DNA of 27,501 nucleotides from a virus (lineage: Duplodnaviria > Caudoviricetes): IMG/VR virus record IMGVR_UViG_3300049042_000403, positions 1-27,501 of that record. One strand, written 5' to 3'. How positions within the stretch are numbered: position 1 is the first letter of the stretch; each line of letters opens with the position of its first letter. A model generated the notes under the pieces. It ran no database searches, was not told the DNA's origin, and was given only the letters and a program-made list of their open reading frames with translations. Below are positions 6,371 through 26,475 of the stretch, one piece after another. A program made the translations under genes and the position numbers.

Positions 6371-7081
6371 TCAAGCGATTTGCTGAATTTCGACGGCGAT
6401 GAGTTCGGCGTCGCCTGTCATAGTGTCGTTGGTGGCATCGTCGGCATCGCGGAAGACTTTGATGCGGAAGGTGTCGCCGACGACGAGGGAATCAATGGAG
6501 GTGGCGGTGATTTCGGCGATGGTGACTATTCCTGAGGTTCCGTTTGCGGCACTGGTGGTGAGCGTGGCGGTGTCGAAGGAGTCGGCATCAAGATCGGTAA
6601 CGCAACGCTCGAACTGCACGCCCCATCGGACATTGCCGGAGGTGGCGGAGGTGGCCATCCACGCAAGGCGGATTTTTAGGCCGCTGGAGAGATTGGCGTA
6701 GTCGGGGATGACGCCGGAGAAGATCGCGGCTTCGTCGGTGGCAGCGTCGAAATCGAGGACGGCGATGGAGTTTCGCGTGTCCAAGGTGGCGAAGGCGGTG
6801 GCGGGGGGCTGGTTCTCGCGGGGGGTGAATCGGGCGAGGGTTTTTGAGGCGAGGTAATAATTTTGCGTGCCTGTCGAGGCATTCAGAGTCGTTCCTGTGA
6901 TTGATAGCGAGCTGCCGAGTTCGAGGTGGGTGAGTTTGCCTGCGGAGTCGTCCCAGAAGAGGAGTTTGTCGGCTCCGGCGTCAGCGGCGGAGATGGCTCC
7001 GTCGGTGGCTGTGAGTGCGTCTGCGGCGGTGGGGTCGATAGAAACGCTGTCGCCGGAGGCGAGGATGGGTGTTGCGATCAT
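6371..7081 (-). CDS. Tail fibre-associated beta-rich protein
   Basis: 236 aa, Ala/Thr/Ser/Asp rich, within the fibre cluster. Confidence 0.6.
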   Translation of the reverse strand: MIATPILASGDSVSIDPTAADALTATDGAISAADAGADKLLFWDDSAGKLTHLELGSSLSITGTTLNASTGTQNYYLASKTLARFTPRENQPPATAFATLDTRNSIAVLDFDAATDEAAIFSGVIPDYANLSSGLKIRLAWMATSATSGNVRWGVQFERCVTDLDADSFDTATLTTSAANGTSGIVTIAEITATSIDSLVVGDTFRIKVFRDADDATNDTMTGDAELIAVEIQQIA

Positions 7082-20380: not shown

Positions 20381-20974
20381 GCCCTTGGCGAATTTGTCAA
20401 ACCGAGCGCGAAGACTTTCCGGCGTGGCGGTGGCTGCGGCGGCGACGCCTTCCTCGATGGCGTCGGCGAATCCGAGGGCCACGGCTTCGACGGCATCGAG
20501 CCAGGTCTCGGCATCCATCATCTCGGCTACCTGCGCCTGCTCCATGCCGGTTTTGCGGACATAGGCGTTGACGAGGGTGGACTTGAGCTTGTCGAGGAGG
20601 TCGGCTTCTTTGCGGAGCTGGTCGCTGTCGCCTGCGCTAACGGTCCACGGATTGTGGATCATGAGGAGCGCGTTGTCGGCGATATAGACCGGGTTGCCCG
20701 ACATGGCGATGACGCTGGCCATCGAGGCGGCGAGCGCGTCGATGTGGACGGTCAGCCCGCCTTTGTGCCGGCGAAGGGCGTTGTAAATGGCCGTTCCCTC
20801 AACCACGGACCCACCGGGCGAGTTGATGCGGAGGTGAATGTGTTGGCCGTCGAGCTTTCCGAGGTCTGCGAGGAACTCTTTTGAGCCTGAGCCGAAAGCA
20901 CCGACTTCATCGTAGAGATGTATCGTTGCCTCGCCGTTGTCGGATTTTTCCAGTGCATAGAATTTTTTGTTCAT
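19847..20974 (-). CDS. ClpP-type prohead protease with C-terminal scaffold (375 aa)
   Basis: INSPGGSV, AASMASVI, MIHNPW, ETWLDAVEAVALGFAD; start MNKKF overlaps the portal stop. Confidence 0.92.
   Translation of the reverse strand: MNKKFYALEKSDNGEATIHLYDEVGAFGSGSKEFLADLGKLDGQHIHLRINSPGGSVVEGTAIYNALRRHKGGLTVHIDALAASMASVIAMSGNPVYIADNALLMIHNPWTVSAGDSDQLRKEADLLDKLKSTLVNAYVRKTGMEQAQVAEMMDAETWLDAVEAVALGFADAIEEGVAAAATATPESLRARFDKFAKGMTENPVTETPEIAEAPEAQAPVEATVISENAEVSAPEVVETPAAEEAPEAPAAEQPAEVVEPQAKISAADSILAKFNGAIAERDAALAEASAYRAKFEALNSEVETLRSELAQDREDLGRLQRSFGLSAARVVPEIDQSANTASIYDQWKNATGAEKTRIFRANRKALEAHAKTSAI
20395..20401 (-). promoter_or_regulatory. Intragenic TTTGACA late motif
   Basis: TTTGACA-N14-ATG inside the protease gene. 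Confidence 0.65.
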
Positions 20975-22479
20975 GGTGTTTGTTGGGTGGGTTGAGTGAC
21001 TTCGTCCGCGTCCTCGTCGTCGCTTGATTCGGCGGGCTGTTGCGCGGCGATGCCGCTGCGGATGGAGTTCGGGAAGACCTGGGCGACATCGAGGCCGAGG
21101 GCTTCGCATTTTTGTTTGCGCCGGAGGTAGGTCTCGATGACATCCGCCTCCTCTTCCTCGGCTCTCAGCCCTTGCATGTTGTAAAAGCGGGTCGGGCTGA
21201 GGTGGCCTTTGTCGAGTTGCTCGCTGAAGGCGCGGGCGTCGCGGCCGCTGTCCACCGTGATCTTTTTCGGGGCGAGCCATTCGTGCCGCCACCAATCATC
21301 GCCGGGGTATTCGAGGCGACCGGACTGCATTTCGTGCCACAACCAATATTTGTAAAAGGGGCGGCAAAACTGATCGATGACCTGCTGCTGGAGACGCTCG
21401 AGGAAATTCTGCGTGACTTCGAGGACGGCTCTTTGTTCGGTGCCAGCGAGGCCGACATTGACCATCATGGCCTCGGGCGGGAGGCCGACGGCGAAGGCGA
21501 CATCGGAGCGGAGGGCGCGCATGACGGCTTCATAGGTCTGGCCGGGGATGTCGTTCTTGAAGGCTTCGAGTTTTTCGCCGGGCTTGAGGCGAGGGAGGAG
21601 GATGCCGTTCGGGAGGTCGCTGGTTTGGAGTTCGCCGACTTCGTTGGTCGTGGATTTGAGGCCAGCGCCGAGGCCGATCTTGGCGACTTCGGTGGAGGTG
21701 ACCATGTAGCCGATTTGCGCCCCTGCTTTGTAAGCGCCCTTCACGAATCCGTTGATTTCGGAGATGTCGCGGAGGTTGGAGACGGCGGAGTGGAACCACG
21801 AAACGCCGCGCGGCTGGGCGTGGCGGCGGATGTGTCGGAAGTGGAGAATGTCTTCGGCGGGGATGCGGGTGCCGTTTTCGGCGTTGATGGTGTAGGAGAC
21901 GGGCGCGCCGAAGCGGTCCATCGTCACGCCGTCGTGGGTCATGTCGTCGGGGTTGCCGTAGCCTGCGGAGCCGCCGATGGACTCGCCACCGATGAAGCGG
22001 ACGCGGGCAGCGCCTTCTTTGGTCTTGAGAAATTGCGCGAAGAAATCGCCGTCGATGGCGACCTGTCGGAGGATGAGGCTTTGGGCGGTGTAGAAATTGA
22101 CCTGCGCGCCGGCATCGAATGCCCACGCCTCGGCGCAGTTGCGGTCCTCGAAATACTGGTCGACCTTTTTGTTCCACGCGAGATTCGAGGTTTTGGGTTG
22201 GACGACAATGCCGGTGCCTATGGCGCGCTGGGCGAGGTGCTCGACGATGTAGGTGGCCTGAGCGGCGTTGTTGTAGAGCCACCGCGAGAGGCGGAGGATT
22301 TCAAGTCGGGTGTGGGCGGTCAGCTCGCGCTTCGGATCGGTGGTCGGAACCCAGATGAGGCCGCGATTCAGCGAGGGCTGAGCGGCTTCAAAGGCGGCAG
22401 CTTTTGCGTCTGGCTTGCGCGGGCGGCCTGCTCCGGGACGGGTTCCACCCCAACTTGATTTTTTGATTTTCGACGGCAC
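20971..22479 (-). CDS. Portal protein, lambda family
   Basis: 502 aa; DGVTMDRFGAPVSY, EDILHF, QPRGVSW, LKPGE, FCRPFY motifs. Confidence 0.92.
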   Translation of the reverse strand: MPSKIKKSSWGGTRPGAGRPRKPDAKAAAFEAAQPSLNRGLIWVPTTDPKRELTAHTRLEILRLSRWLYNNAAQATYIVEHLAQRAIGTGIVVQPKTSNLAWNKKVDQYFEDRNCAEAWAFDAGAQVNFYTAQSLILRQVAIDGDFFAQFLKTKEGAARVRFIGGESIGGSAGYGNPDDMTHDGVTMDRFGAPVSYTINAENGTRIPAEDILHFRHIRRHAQPRGVSWFHSAVSNLRDISEINGFVKGAYKAGAQIGYMVTSTEVAKIGLGAGLKSTTNEVGELQTSDLPNGILLPRLKPGEKLEAFKNDIPGQTYEAVMRALRSDVAFAVGLPPEAMMVNVGLAGTEQRAVLEVTQNFLERLQQQVIDQFCRPFYKYWLWHEMQSGRLEYPGDDWWRHEWLAPKKITVDSGRDARAFSEQLDKGHLSPTRFYNMQGLRAEEEEADVIETYLRRKQKCEALGLDVAQVFPNSIRSGIAAQQPAESSDDEDADEVTQPTQQTP

Positions 22480-22492
22480 GCCGAGGCGGGCG

Positions 22493-22499
22493 TGTCAAA
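22493..22499 (-). promoter_or_regulatory. TTTGACA late motif, 13 nt before the portal GTG
   Basis: Overlaps the upstream TGA; N13-GTG. Confidence 0.65.
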
Positions 22500-22770
22500 C
22501 GAGCGTGCCGTAGCGGGAGCGGTCGGCGATGGCGAAAAGCTGGCGACCGTTCGGGCCTTCGCTTAGGAGTTCTTCGGCGGCTTGCAGGAGGAGCCACTTG
22601 GGGAACGAGATTTGTCCGGCGCTGCTGGCGCCTTCGGAGCCGAGGGATGTGATGACGACTTCCTCGGTTGCACTGGCGAATGTGGCGAGCGCGAGGGCTT
22701 CGAGTTCGGCGGTGGTCTTGGTGCGGCGGAGGAAGGCTTTAACGCCGGAGATTTTGTCGAGGTCGGTCAC
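22495..22770 (-). CDS. gpW-like head-tail adaptor
   Basis: 91 aa helix-hairpin-helix pattern immediately before a lambda-type portal. Confidence 0.55.
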   Translation of the reverse strand: MTDLDKISGVKAFLRRTKTTAELEALALATFASATEEVVITSLGSEGASSAGQISFPKWLLLQAAEELLSEGPNGRQLFAIADRSRYGTLV

Positions 22771-22783
22771 GCCTCGGCGGGCG

Positions 22784-22790
22784 TGTCAAA
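22784..22790 (-). promoter_or_regulatory. TTTGACA late motif, 13 nt before GTG 22770
   Basis: TTTGACACGCCCGCC is shared with the portal copy. Confidence 0.65.
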
Positions 22791-22798
22791 ATGATTTC

Positions 22799-22825
22799 AC
22801 CACGGAGAGCACGGAGAGCACGGAG
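22799..22825. repeat. Solo arm of the 3x9-mer repeat family
   Basis: ACCACGGAG AGCACGGAG AGCACGGAG. Confidence 0.8.
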
Positions 22826-22828
22826 GAG

Positions 22829-22870
22829 AAAAGAAAAACGCGCCCTTGATGTGCATCACCTTTGAGGGCG
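22829..22870 (-). terminator. Terminator-like hairpin after the candidate ncRNA
   Basis: CGCCCT..TGATG-CA-CATCA-AGGGCG then CGTTTTTCTTTT. Confidence 0.6.
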
Positions 22871-22895
22871 AGCGGCACGGCGCGTGTGTTTTGTT

Positions 22896-23037
22896 TTGCA
22901 GGGACGGCGCGGCCGCACCTTTTCAGACGCCGGGTTTCCAATCTTGCGGCACGCCATACGGTGGCCTCCCGAGATCGATGTGGCGGGTCGAAGCCATGCT
23001 CCACTGCCGCTCATCAGTGTCTCTCGTCTGCCTGCAA
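22896..23037 (-). ncRNA. Candidate structured non-coding RNA (family not recognised)
   Basis: Three nested perfect long-range helices plus three hairpins, with an upstream TTTGACT motif and a downstream terminator. Confidence 0.55.
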
Positions 23038-23075
23038 GGATTTGGGGGAGTCAAAAGCTACAGGCGAGAAAGATG

Positions 23076-23094
23076 CTACATTTGGCAAATGTAG
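23076..23094. promoter_or_regulatory. Perfect palindrome CTACATTTG-G-CAAATGTAG (operator candidate)
   Basis: 9-bp arms with a 1-nt spacer, about 20 nt upstream of the TTTGACT motif. Confidence 0.5.
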
Positions 23095-23146
23095 AGTCCG
23101 GCTGTTTAGATTTTGCCTTAAAACTCAAGCGTGGCTGGAAGTTTGG

Positions 23147-23335
23147 CTACAATTTCGACTCGATGTATTTTCCGCGTGACTGGTCGCCTCGGTCGCGGTC
23201 GAGCTTTTGCCAGCTCTCCGGTTGCATGGAGACTGAACGCGTGACAGCTGTCCGGCCTTTGGCGTTTTTGTTTTTGCTGCCGGTTTTGCGGCCGGCGCCT
23301 TTGCGCGGGCCGCCGTGGGTGGTGGGCTTGCTCAT
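23147..23335 (-). CDS. Ribbon-helix-helix-like regulator with GGxRxGAGRK arm
   Basis: HGGPRKGAGRK then VTRSVSM strand and two helices (SRGKYIE). Confidence 0.7.
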   Translation of the reverse strand: MSKPTTHGGPRKGAGRKTGSKNKNAKGRTAVTRSVSMQPESWQKLDRDRGDQSRGKYIESKL

Positions 23336-24583: not shown

Positions 24584-24799
24584 TTAGGACATCCCGAAGA
24601 TTTTCATAAGGTCGGCAACGGCGGTGGGGTTTTCTGGCTGAGGGGGTGGGGCGTGTTCGTCTTCGCCTTCGTGGAGGGCCAAGTCCCATGTCTGGTCGAA
24701 CATCTTGCGGAGGCCGCGCGTTGACAAAGTCACATTTCCATCGCGCTCAAATGCGGGATTCTTTGCGCAGTATATTTTCCAGAGTTGGGATTTTTTCAT
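24584..24799 (-). CDS. Hypothetical protein (71 aa, MKKSQLWKIY...)
   Basis: ATGA overlap with the TerL stop; the real 3' part of the 644-aa shadow ORF. Confidence 0.65.
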   Translation of the reverse strand: MKKSQLWKIYCAKNPAFERDGNVTLSTRGLRKMFDQTWDLALHEGEDEHAPPPQPENPTAVADLMKIFGMS

Positions 24800-26475
24800 T
24801 TGAATTCGATGGCTCCGGCTTTGCGGAGTTGTTGCGCGCAGGCGTAGTTGAGGCGAACGGAGTCGGCGAAGTGGTCGCCTGCGACCGAGCGCCATTCCTT
24901 GCGGCCTTTTTTGCTGACGATGATTTTTTGCCCCATGAAGGCGGACAGGAATTCTTCGCCGGAGTCTTTTGGGAAAAATAGAAAGGGGGATTTCCGCTTG
25001 GCGATGCGGTCGATGAAGAGGGAGACTTTCGACGCGAATTCGTTGACGGTGTAGAGGGGCATCGTCGGGTATTCCTTGAGCACGCTTTCGCTGATGCTGC
25101 CGAAATTCGCGCCGGAGCCTTTGGCCGGGAAAAAGAAATTTCCCGAGAGATAGCAGGCGCGATAAACGGCGTTGGCGTTGAAGCCTGAGTCGAGGAGGCC
25201 GCCGATGGGGGTGACTTCCCTGCCGTCGGGCGTTTTGAATTTCTGCGACTGCGCGATCTGGATCATGTCGTCGATGCCGGTGACGGTGCCGTAGTCGAGC
25301 ACATAGGAGTCTCCGTTTTCCGAAAAGGCCATGGTCGTCCAGTGCGAGGTGTCTTGGCCGACATCCGCTGACAGGGTGATGGCGACGGGCTCGATGGGGC
25401 AGGCTCCTCGGAGGTAGTCTTTGCGACAGGCGAGCACCTCGGCGCTGGTGGCTCCGGTGCCTTGGACGGTCCACCGGCGGGCGTTGCGCTTTTGGATGAA
25501 TTGTTTCATGGCCTCGGTGTCTCCGGCCTTGCGGTCGAGATCGGCCTTGACCCACTCGACAGCGAGCGATCCCCACGGAATCCACCAGACGGCGCTGGCA
25601 TCGTAGTGGAAGGCGATGCGACCGGGCGCGCCGTGCGACTTCACGATGTAGCGGGAGCCGGAGGACAGGGCGCGGCGGATGCGCGGGTCGTCCATGTATT
25701 CGTGCGAGCATGTGGGGCAGACGAGCCGCGCGCTCTTTGCGACGCGATCCCAGAGCATGGCGCCATTGGCGTCGGTCTCTCGGTCGAAGGCTATGTTTTT
25801 GAAATCCCACGGATGCACTTCGCCGCATAGGCACTGCCAGGAGAATTCGCGCCTTTCGCATAGGTCTTCTGCGTCGTGGAAATCGTCGCCTTCCTCGCCG
25901 CCTTGGGAAACGAGGATGCGGCGGGCGTTCCATCGGTCGTGGGTGCGCCGGCGGAATTCCTCGAGCATGCCGCGCTTCCATCGCCAGACCTCGTCGGCGA
26001 TGGCCCAGCGGATGGATTTTTCTTGGAGGCTGGTGAGGTTGGCCCCGCCGATGAAGAGGGGCATGTGGGGAAAGAGGATCTCCGTCTTGCGCTTTTGGTG
26101 GCGGTCTTTCGGGAAGAGCTTGGCGACTGATGGGATGGCTTCGAGCATCGGACCGAGGCGCGACTCGGCCCACTGCTTGGCGGTCTTGTCCGTCTGGCCG
26201 GTCACCAATGTCGGGCCGGGGTTCTCGCTGATGATCCACGCCAGAAGCGCCTCGAATAGCGTTGTCTTGCCGCTGCCGACAGGCGCGCAAATGATGATCT
26301 CGTCGTTGGTGTCTTTGGCGATTTCCTCGATGGGCTCGTTCATCCATTGCGCTGTCGTGGAATCGAATTGCGTATTCCGAGCCGAATGCGGGACGACGAC
26401 ATGGCGGGCCATCCATTGCACCGGACTCAGCCGCTCGCCGGGGTTGACTCCGAGTTTGAAGAATTCCGCAATCAT
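24796..26475 (-). CDS. terL: Terminase large subunit, lambda gpA family
   Basis: Walker A PVGSGKT, Walker B WAIADE, CLCG/CPTC Zn knuckle, nuclease ADVG, DSGF, DHFADS. Confidence 0.93.
   Translation of the reverse strand: MIAEFFKLGVNPGERLSPVQWMARHVVVPHSARNTQFDSTTAQWMNEPIEEIAKDTNDEIIICAPVGSGKTTLFEALLAWIISENPGPTLVTGQTDKTAKQWAESRLGPMLEAIPSVAKLFPKDRHQKRKTEILFPHMPLFIGGANLTSLQEKSIRWAIADEVWRWKRGMLEEFRRRTHDRWNARRILVSQGGEEGDDFHDAEDLCERREFSWQCLCGEVHPWDFKNIAFDRETDANGAMLWDRVAKSARLVCPTCSHEYMDDPRIRRALSSGSRYIVKSHGAPGRIAFHYDASAVWWIPWGSLAVEWVKADLDRKAGDTEAMKQFIQKRNARRWTVQGTGATSAEVLACRKDYLRGACPIEPVAITLSADVGQDTSHWTTMAFSENGDSYVLDYGTVTGIDDMIQIAQSQKFKTPDGREVTPIGGLLDSGFNANAVYRACYLSGNFFFPAKGSGANFGSISESVLKEYPTMPLYTVNEFASKVSLFIDRIAKRKSPFLFFPKDSGEEFLSAFMGQKIIVSKKGRKEWRSVAGDHFADSVRLNYACAQQLRKAGAIEFK

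Follow-up and report, generated by a model that had tools for sequence, protein, structure and literature searches.

The terminase-head interval of a lambda-like phage

The window, the whole stretch of 27,501 nucleotides that was analysed, is a lambda-like phage record with terminase small and large subunit genes, a variable slot of ~2 kb, a 91-aa gene, and portal, protease and capsid genes. The genes around the slot are:

24796..26475, minus strand: terminase large subunit (phrog_15, E 1e-58), upstream edge of the variable slot
22495..22770, minus strand: 91-aa conserved head-module protein with 104 homologues and without a family name, downstream edge of the slot
20971-22479: lambda-family portal, after the 91-aa gene

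Position alone suggests a head-tail joining role for the 91-aa protein. The window portal occurs at 88-98% identity in three Verrucomicrobia genome bins, one of them named Terrimicrobiaceae, and because of this occurrence the phage group is taken to infect Verrucomicrobia and its host to belong to Terrimicrobiaceae (the host family below). Among relatives the terminase-head interval ranges from 36 to 2778 nt in length. In the window it contains an island of small ORFs behind a sigma70-like promoter (~24465-23147, minus strand), the last of which encodes a 62-aa basic protein; between the small ORFs lies a hairpin whose 7-nt loop resembles that of a tRNA T-arm, with ACCA after it (~23682-23655, minus strand); this hairpin is repeated in many relatives. 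Other RNA-like cassettes were seen in the same slot of relatives. One, closed, ~150 nt long and unrelated to the RNA described here, stands behind TTTGAC (L138:2770-2950, L079:578-760, L142, L736), has no Rfam match and, as judged by eye, has a short A-rich module in common with one of the P5 arms described below. Another, of ~105 nt, has paired ends and a U-tract (L040:3978-4110, L141:1750-1880) and no Rfam match in the copy tested (L141).

An earlier note had proposed a novel structured noncoding RNA between terminase and portal, of a family it did not recognise, in a gap without a convincing ORF. All strings and coordinates that it quoted are present in the sequence, including TTTTGACT 13 nt before G23035. 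The 72-aa ORF in the gap is interrupted by stops in relatives L004, L083, L126 and L130, in agreement with the note, and three plus-strand ORFs spanning the gap gave no family match. Nor did Rfam recognise the family: there was no match to it in the window, nor at E up to 10 in 22700-23200, and with Rfam 15 the element in 20 diverse loci gave no match at E up to 5 except three weak miRNA-model overlaps in L523. Two family variants had no match among 50,697 annotated phage records. We found no Rfam family, annotated phage record or description of this RNA in the literature searched (mostly non-subscription papers); a prior bare listing is possible. Three supplements of Fremin et al. 2023 (PMC10690425) held no match, and the family may be among their candidates. 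The predicted features of the RNA, which we call the scaffold RNA, are:

22898..23035, minus strand: whole scaffold RNA, 138 nt, predicted transcript unit; sole window match of family model R1 (94.7 bits, with the window sequence part of the R1 training set)
23050..23055, minus strand: TTTGAC motif, a putative late promoter element of the phage; the first paired G follows 14 nt on
23025..23035, minus strand: 5' strands of P1 (23035-23031 with 22902-22898) and P2 (23030-23025 with 22929-22924)
22977..23015, minus strand: P3 arm, a conserved 4-bp base (23015-23012 with 22980-22977) carrying swappable cargo
22940..22976, minus strand: P4 (22976-22973 with 22943-22940), with the 5' pseudoknot strand and the swappable P5 arm 22967-22944 inside it
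22930..22972, minus strand: pseudoknot (22972-22968 with 22934-22930), after the purine-rich linker 22939-22935
22906..22919, minus strand: P6 hairpin, whose palindromic loop is the predicted site of kissing-loop dimerisation

Fold of the scaffold RNA and its palindromic loop

Queries with the portal and the 91-aa protein fetched 147 loci, many of which kept the two ends of the element around very different interiors, and pattern scans of viral and metagenome collections raised the set to 99 distinct copies of 92-185 nt from several unrelated freshwater phage groups. Of the matches to the 3' end in the scan of highest specificity, 51/52 had a matching 5' end; in a looser scan set, 93/135 matches without one were dropped as chance. 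P1 and the bases next to the side hairpin were fixed in the search patterns, so that their invariance is partly built in.

In 91 copies the strands follow the order P1, P2, a joiner of 8-12 nt, P3 with its variable arm, P4, a 5-nt strand and the variable arm P5, and then the second P4 strand, a linker rich in purines, a 5-nt strand able to pair with the earlier one (the pseudoknot), P2, four purine-rich bases, P6 and P1. Pairs of P2 are kept in 88-91 of the 91 copies per position, with double changes (3/6 pairs in an independent count), and in the P3 base all four pairs change on both sides. P4 occurs in seven variants, paired at each position in 91/91 copies, with a register that differs by one base between subtypes. 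The central three pairs of the pseudoknot are kept in 91/91 copies, two of them with compensatory changes. Overall, P3, P4 and the pseudoknot take 12, 7 and ~9 sequence forms, respectively, with pairing kept in 81-91 of 91 copies per position. A control with shuffled interiors was run because the parser picks registers that maximise pairing: all 13 core pairs form in 80/91 copies and in 5/1820 shuffled interiors. The core comprises 24 distinct haplotypes, related by descent, and has few invariant junction bases. A MAFFT alignment of 28 copies covering P1, P2, P3 and P6 gave 99.4% paired cells and double changes in 8/18 pairs, a level reached by 0/500 shuffles. A compensated 6-bp P1 is present in L633 and L635, copies found with model R1. 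We concluded from this covariation that the interior is a predicted helix-helix-pseudoknot core with two interchangeable arms.

The conserved ends, variable middle and patchy presence of the element would also suit a mobile or recombination element acting at the DNA level, with inverted ends that merely resemble RNA helices. We consider this extremely improbable: G-U-type pairs outnumber A-C pairs 25 to 2 on this strand, so that wobble favours a minus-strand RNA, the interior helices and the pseudoknot covary, and one copy per contig or genome was found wherever searched.

Several helices proposed by the earlier note are borne out by covariation among the relatives, namely P1 (as 5 bp, 23035-31/22902-898), P2 and the hairpin at the P1-P2 junction, which is P6. 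Its third nested helix is not: all six pairs form in the window only, 2-5 of them form in the other 29 of the 30 closest-type copies, and its pair probability is 0.00. The 14/16-nt purine-rich internal loop likewise finds no support among relatives, and the CUGAUGA and the T-loop-like hairpin described there occur in only 16/99 and 2/99 copies, respectively. Of the checks that the note had named, covariation among collected relatives came out strong, and folding energy against shuffles gave no signal (z -0.42 for 228 nt; family median -0.56, with 8/99 copies below -2) under an energy model that leaves out the pseudoknot; taken alone, the note's own criterion would make this an adverse result.

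The central 4-mer of the P6 loop is self-complementary in 31/31 true variants, which exclude three non-palindromic false matches (4/6 P2 pairs, no core), and five different 4-mers occur. The palindrome reaches six bases at the same position in 28/31 variants and one base over in the other three; the closing stem covaries as well. Because these central bases cannot pair with each other inside a hairpin and are otherwise free in sequence, pairing between two molecules is the simplest reading, and the loop predicts kissing-loop dimers. The HIV-1 dimerisation site is described as a loop with a 6-nt palindrome and flanking purines (PMC5874298), and two P6 variants share its hexamers GCGCGC or GUGCAC with flanking purines. 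The P6 loop also stays self-complementary through sequence change, as expected of a kissing-loop dimerisation hairpin. P6 differs from the described site in its 2-5 bp stem within a three-way junction of a small phage RNA and in having many more palindromes, some of them A-U rich; the likeness is only a convergent resemblance, not kinship. Self-association, predicted here, is also known from GOLLD, ROOL and OLE, phage or bacterial RNAs of several hundred nt described as forming cages or pipes (10.1101/2024.12.08.627333). Some of those RNAs also lie near tRNA genes or have variable regions; compared with that description, the present family is smaller (92-185 nt), folds differently and has no Rfam match.

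Transcription, distribution and genomic context

Twelve of the 14 TTTGAC copies in the window are on the minus strand, in a total not above shuffles, and in 5/12 of these a start codon follows 14-15 nt on. TTTGAC stands 14-15 nt ahead of the start codons of head and lysis genes, and one site lies in the protease gene (20401) before an in-frame-looking ATG. This placement suggests leaderless late transcripts. A TTTGAC-type motif is found 14-15 nt upstream in 49/99 family members, which together with the covarying homologues supports the earlier proposal of a structured RNA behind a late-type motif. The other 50 copies have an AU-rich run that ends 1-2 nt before the first G, with T at -4 in 48/50; such a run would fit release from a longer transcript by a single-strand nuclease. 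One metatranscriptome held two homologue contigs (189 and 151 nt), each starting 12 nt before the inferred or aligned start; they may represent DNA, their ends and levels are uninformative, and we did not count them as expression.

The element is present in 32/100 distinct terminase-head intervals. Among relatives with portal identity of at least 95%, it is absent from L001, L002, L003 and L006-L009 and present in L004, L005 and L459. Its upstream neighbours in other phages (37-62% G+C) are helicase, HNH or resolvase genes or tRNA clusters, and in 17/24 loci examined the gene that comes next has the opposite orientation. Because it is accessory (32/100 intervals) and often faces the next gene, the element as judged from these loci is unlikely to be a packaging or leader element. 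Model R1 finds the RNA in 5/102 host-family genome bins, on phage-like contigs (three on terminase or portal contigs, two ahead of a viral scaffold-like gene), and in 0/150 genomes from the rest of the phylum, and hence it is no core gene of the host; on this distribution we regard it as phage-borne. A cognate host toxin for the scaffold was considered and dropped, since the host-family matches sit on phage-like contigs. Members L633 and L635 (G003:C20, G249:C126), with the 6-bp P1, stand ahead of a viral scaffold-like gene of 357-359 aa and appear to mark another phage group binned with the host family; a scan of the viral collection for the 6-bp P1 variant returned nothing.

The earlier note had thought of an assembly or packaging role, and an RNA forming oligomers at the portal in the manner of phi29 pRNA would suit the position between terminase and portal here, the position before the scaffold-like gene in L633 and L635, and the self-pairing loop. 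The prohead RNA of phi29 is essential and has a three-way junction and intermolecular pairing by two different complementary loops. The scaffold RNA shares the three-way junction and, by prediction, the intermolecular loop pairing, but it is dispensable and has one palindrome, which would give dimers, not rings. It is missing from seven of the ten relatives with portal identity of at least 95%, and in other phages it has no tie to head genes, lying after replication genes or tRNAs or head-on to the terminase. A packaging role is very improbable on these counts.

A role in cis on neighbouring genes, as a leader, a riboswitch or a 3' structure that stabilises the mRNA, appears quite improbable. 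The RNA does precede head genes in the lambda-like group and ends early operons in others, but the neighbours are unrelated and, in most loci examined, the next gene is on the opposite strand; the head gene also has its own TTTGAC.

One copy lies 4 nt after a tRNA-Glu gene and another 107 nt after a tRNA-Ala gene, as might be expected of a new class of ribozyme in which self-cleavage or processing serves to mature phage transcripts or tRNAs. (Two members, L591:4869-5028 and L494:220-378, start a few bases past the terminal CCA of the final tRNA in a cluster.) Small ribozymes have a compact nested-plus-pseudoknot core with variable peripheral stems, and the scaffold core is likewise built. This reading, hinted at in the earlier note, is nonetheless improbable: a tRNA is directly upstream in 2/51 loci examined only, junctions hold few invariant bases, copies without the core exist, and no Rfam ribozyme model matched at E up to 10 or 5. 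The hammerhead-like letters are not conserved among relatives. The hammerhead was rejected, as CTGATGA occurs in 16/99 and GAAAC in 24/99 copies, the letters are located in P3 and in the linker of the pseudoknot, and there is no Rfam match. HDV-like, twister, pistol and hatchet ribozymes also had no Rfam match, and their strand order differs from that of the scaffold.

Interchangeable arms and their likeness to abiF RNA

The arms fall into 23 clusters of P3 cargo and 15 of P5 cargo of 19-84 nt, and make up 50 arm/core/loop combinations among the 91 copies. Eight minimal copies (92-94 nt) have dropped the core and consist of P1, P2, one CCTCT-bearing arm and P6 only. The window P3 cargo is common to L601 and L635. 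No host counterparts were found for the window arm, the L004 arm or the L138 cassette, the matches being phage contigs or chance; for 6S RNA, RNase P RNA, tmRNA and rRNA fragments of the host, the best BLAST score among the 99 copies was 24 bits, with shuffles reaching 30.

The main rival to the interpretation developed below is that the core has a conserved job of its own (binding one host protein or a small molecule, or nuclease resistance), with the arms as tolerated variation and the abiF-like arm as a passenger from neighbouring free abiF RNAs. We think this unlikely, though a serious contender. The core is present in 91/99 copies whatever the arms, all 60 viral matches to one core type sit in the frame, and the arms range from 12 to 84 nt with most clusters matching nothing known. 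The minimal copies speak against it, as they discard the core and keep the frame, the palindrome and the CCTCT-bearing arm; the apex, which in L608 stands circularly permuted in the other arm, suggests selection for display.

The RNA abiF (Rfam RF03085) serves as the antitoxin in AbiF/Abi_2, a HEPN toxin-antitoxin and abortive-infection system, and AbiF is the proposed ancestor of Cas13. The commonest P3 arm resembles the abiF apex, with the same GC-closed 11-nt loop and the same letters in the 3' bulge: the apex pattern is found in 28/99 copies and in 6/4950 shuffles. A profile of four distinct Abi_2-linked host apices scored at least 10 bits in 21/99 copies, 16/1980 shuffles and 2/54,966 window positions. 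A 16-nt exact match links the free abiF RNA of L132 to the arm of L518 (shuffles reach 11); except for L518, the longest words shared by free abiF RNAs and arms are at chance level. In L608 the abiF apex stands in the P5 arm in circularly permuted form. Another 26 copies, which include the minimal ones, have CCTCT in longer hairpins, possibly distant abiF-like forms, and 45/99 are without even CCTCT. The likeness is limited to the apex: neither the Rfam abiF model nor R2, a model made from abiF RNAs of the hosts, scores the embedded P3 arms, their lower stem differs from that of abiF, and the bulge geometry varies. The scaffold as a whole is unrelated to abiF RNA, has no toxin gene attached, and in the window has arms that do not match it. 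A single capture, not 28 independent events, is the probable origin of the 28 apex arms. An apex-pattern match in two hosts was rejected, as it lies inside a coding gene.

Free abiF RNAs and an abiF-like hairpin occur in these phages, those of the first three lines in the same slot:

22830..22892, minus strand: putative abiF-like hairpin, divergent, which has an A-rich leader and a U-tract and is the terminator of the earlier note; no toxin gene after it
L060:1944-1980 (50.6 bits), L106:249-285 (48.7), L038:3591-3627 (48.0), L043:2851-2887 (47), L015:4381-4417 (42), L019:1298-1335 (38.7): toxin-less abiF RNAs above the Rfam cut-off (37 bits), six loci
L132 (36.2 bits), L151 (30.9): free abiF RNAs below the cut-off
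L610:2699-2752, L582:4748-4801: toxin-less abiF RNAs, further loci, like the others in phages of the host family

The hairpin and U-tract downstream of the window copy do exist as the earlier note had described; they are no fixed part of the family, since a U-tract lies at most 60 nt away in 9/99 copies. The hairpin (22892-22830) is the best R2 match in the window (24.2 bits, E 4e-4 by rough calibration, part of it from the generic leader and U-tract; next match 11.7 bits), has no Rfam match and is found in three other contigs; the L174 version scores 29.9 bits with R2. Free abiF RNAs are present in 22/100 terminase-head intervals, with no ORF >91 aa behind any of the 22 copies, and no Abi_2 was found among the 43 window ORFs scanned. 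Scaffold and free abiF RNA occur together in 10/100 intervals where ~7 are expected, which does not clearly indicate an association; in other phage groups a free abiF RNA lies near the element in 3/53 loci, one of them 79 nt upstream. L608 also carries, at 6683-6778 on the minus strand, an abiF-like RNA with a 48-nt loop insert, itself a frame with cargo. In the host family, abiF RNA scores above the cut-off in 16/102 genomes, the same-strand downstream ORF is Abi_2 in 10/12 tested, and Abi_2 is encoded in 28/102 genomes.

The reading that we prefer, tentatively and at somewhat less than an even chance, is a phage-borne RNA gene that acts as a stable homodimeric scaffold presenting decoys of host antitoxin RNAs, that of AbiF included, and so keeps abortive-infection nucleases off. 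It is drawn from sequence comparison: the fold, the modular arms, the palindrome, the patchy presence, the toxin-less abiF RNAs and the AbiF systems of the host family. A protein sponge, which the earlier note had raised, lies in the direction that this evidence favours. AbiF is reported to be a HEPN nuclease that forms homodimers with two bound RNAs and whose neutralisation works in trans (10.1101/2025.04.15.648962, PMC12737573), and according to a review AbiF can be inhibited as well by a phage hairpin that does not resemble the antitoxin (PMC13064643). The RNA would be made during infection from the TTTGAC motif, or released at the AU-rich site in other phage groups, and would fold into a closed, pseudoknotted and hence long-lived frame. 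Two molecules may dimerise through P6 loop-loop pairing and so show their arms in pairs to dimeric host defence proteins, of which AbiF is the only nameable target; abiF-like arms would bind the two RNA sites of the AbiF dimer. The window copy has other arms, and its abiF-like sequence, just downstream as a separate hairpin, would be co-transcribed. Three points tell against the decoy reading: the window's own arms are without the abiF apex (0.4 bits), covariance models do not score the embedded arms, and AbiF mimicry does not account for the elaborate pseudoknot core.

A precedent is given by phage PhiTE, whose pseudo-ToxI repeats are described as a noncoding RNA that silences a type III toxin by RNA antitoxin mimicry (PMC3475682). 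The scaffold would work alike, as a phage mimic of an RNA antitoxin; as described, PhiTE uses tandem repeats of one mimic, whereas here single mimics would stand in a folded, self-pairing frame with swappable arms. A search for ToxN in 102 host-family genomes was empty, with the control silent too. The scaffold is not a member of pseudo-ToxI or of any family tested. It is also conceivable, though we find it doubtful, that the RNA is a plug-in platform for counter-defence: a nuclease-resistant, self-dimerising frame common to unrelated phages, in which antitoxin or guide-RNA mimics are swapped and the 20-odd arm types face RNA-dependent host defences, mostly undescribed.

The family adds a well-covarying RNA fold with a built-in, predicted rule of self-association, and a small natural frame that tolerates inserts of 12-84 nt at two sites may be useful for RNA display. 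The toxin-less abiF RNAs of these phages are anti-AbiF candidates on their own. If the decoy reading is true, the scaffold would be an RNA counter-defence against AbiF with a two-fold symmetry that matches the enzyme's, and the other arms would be baits for unknown RNA-controlled defences.
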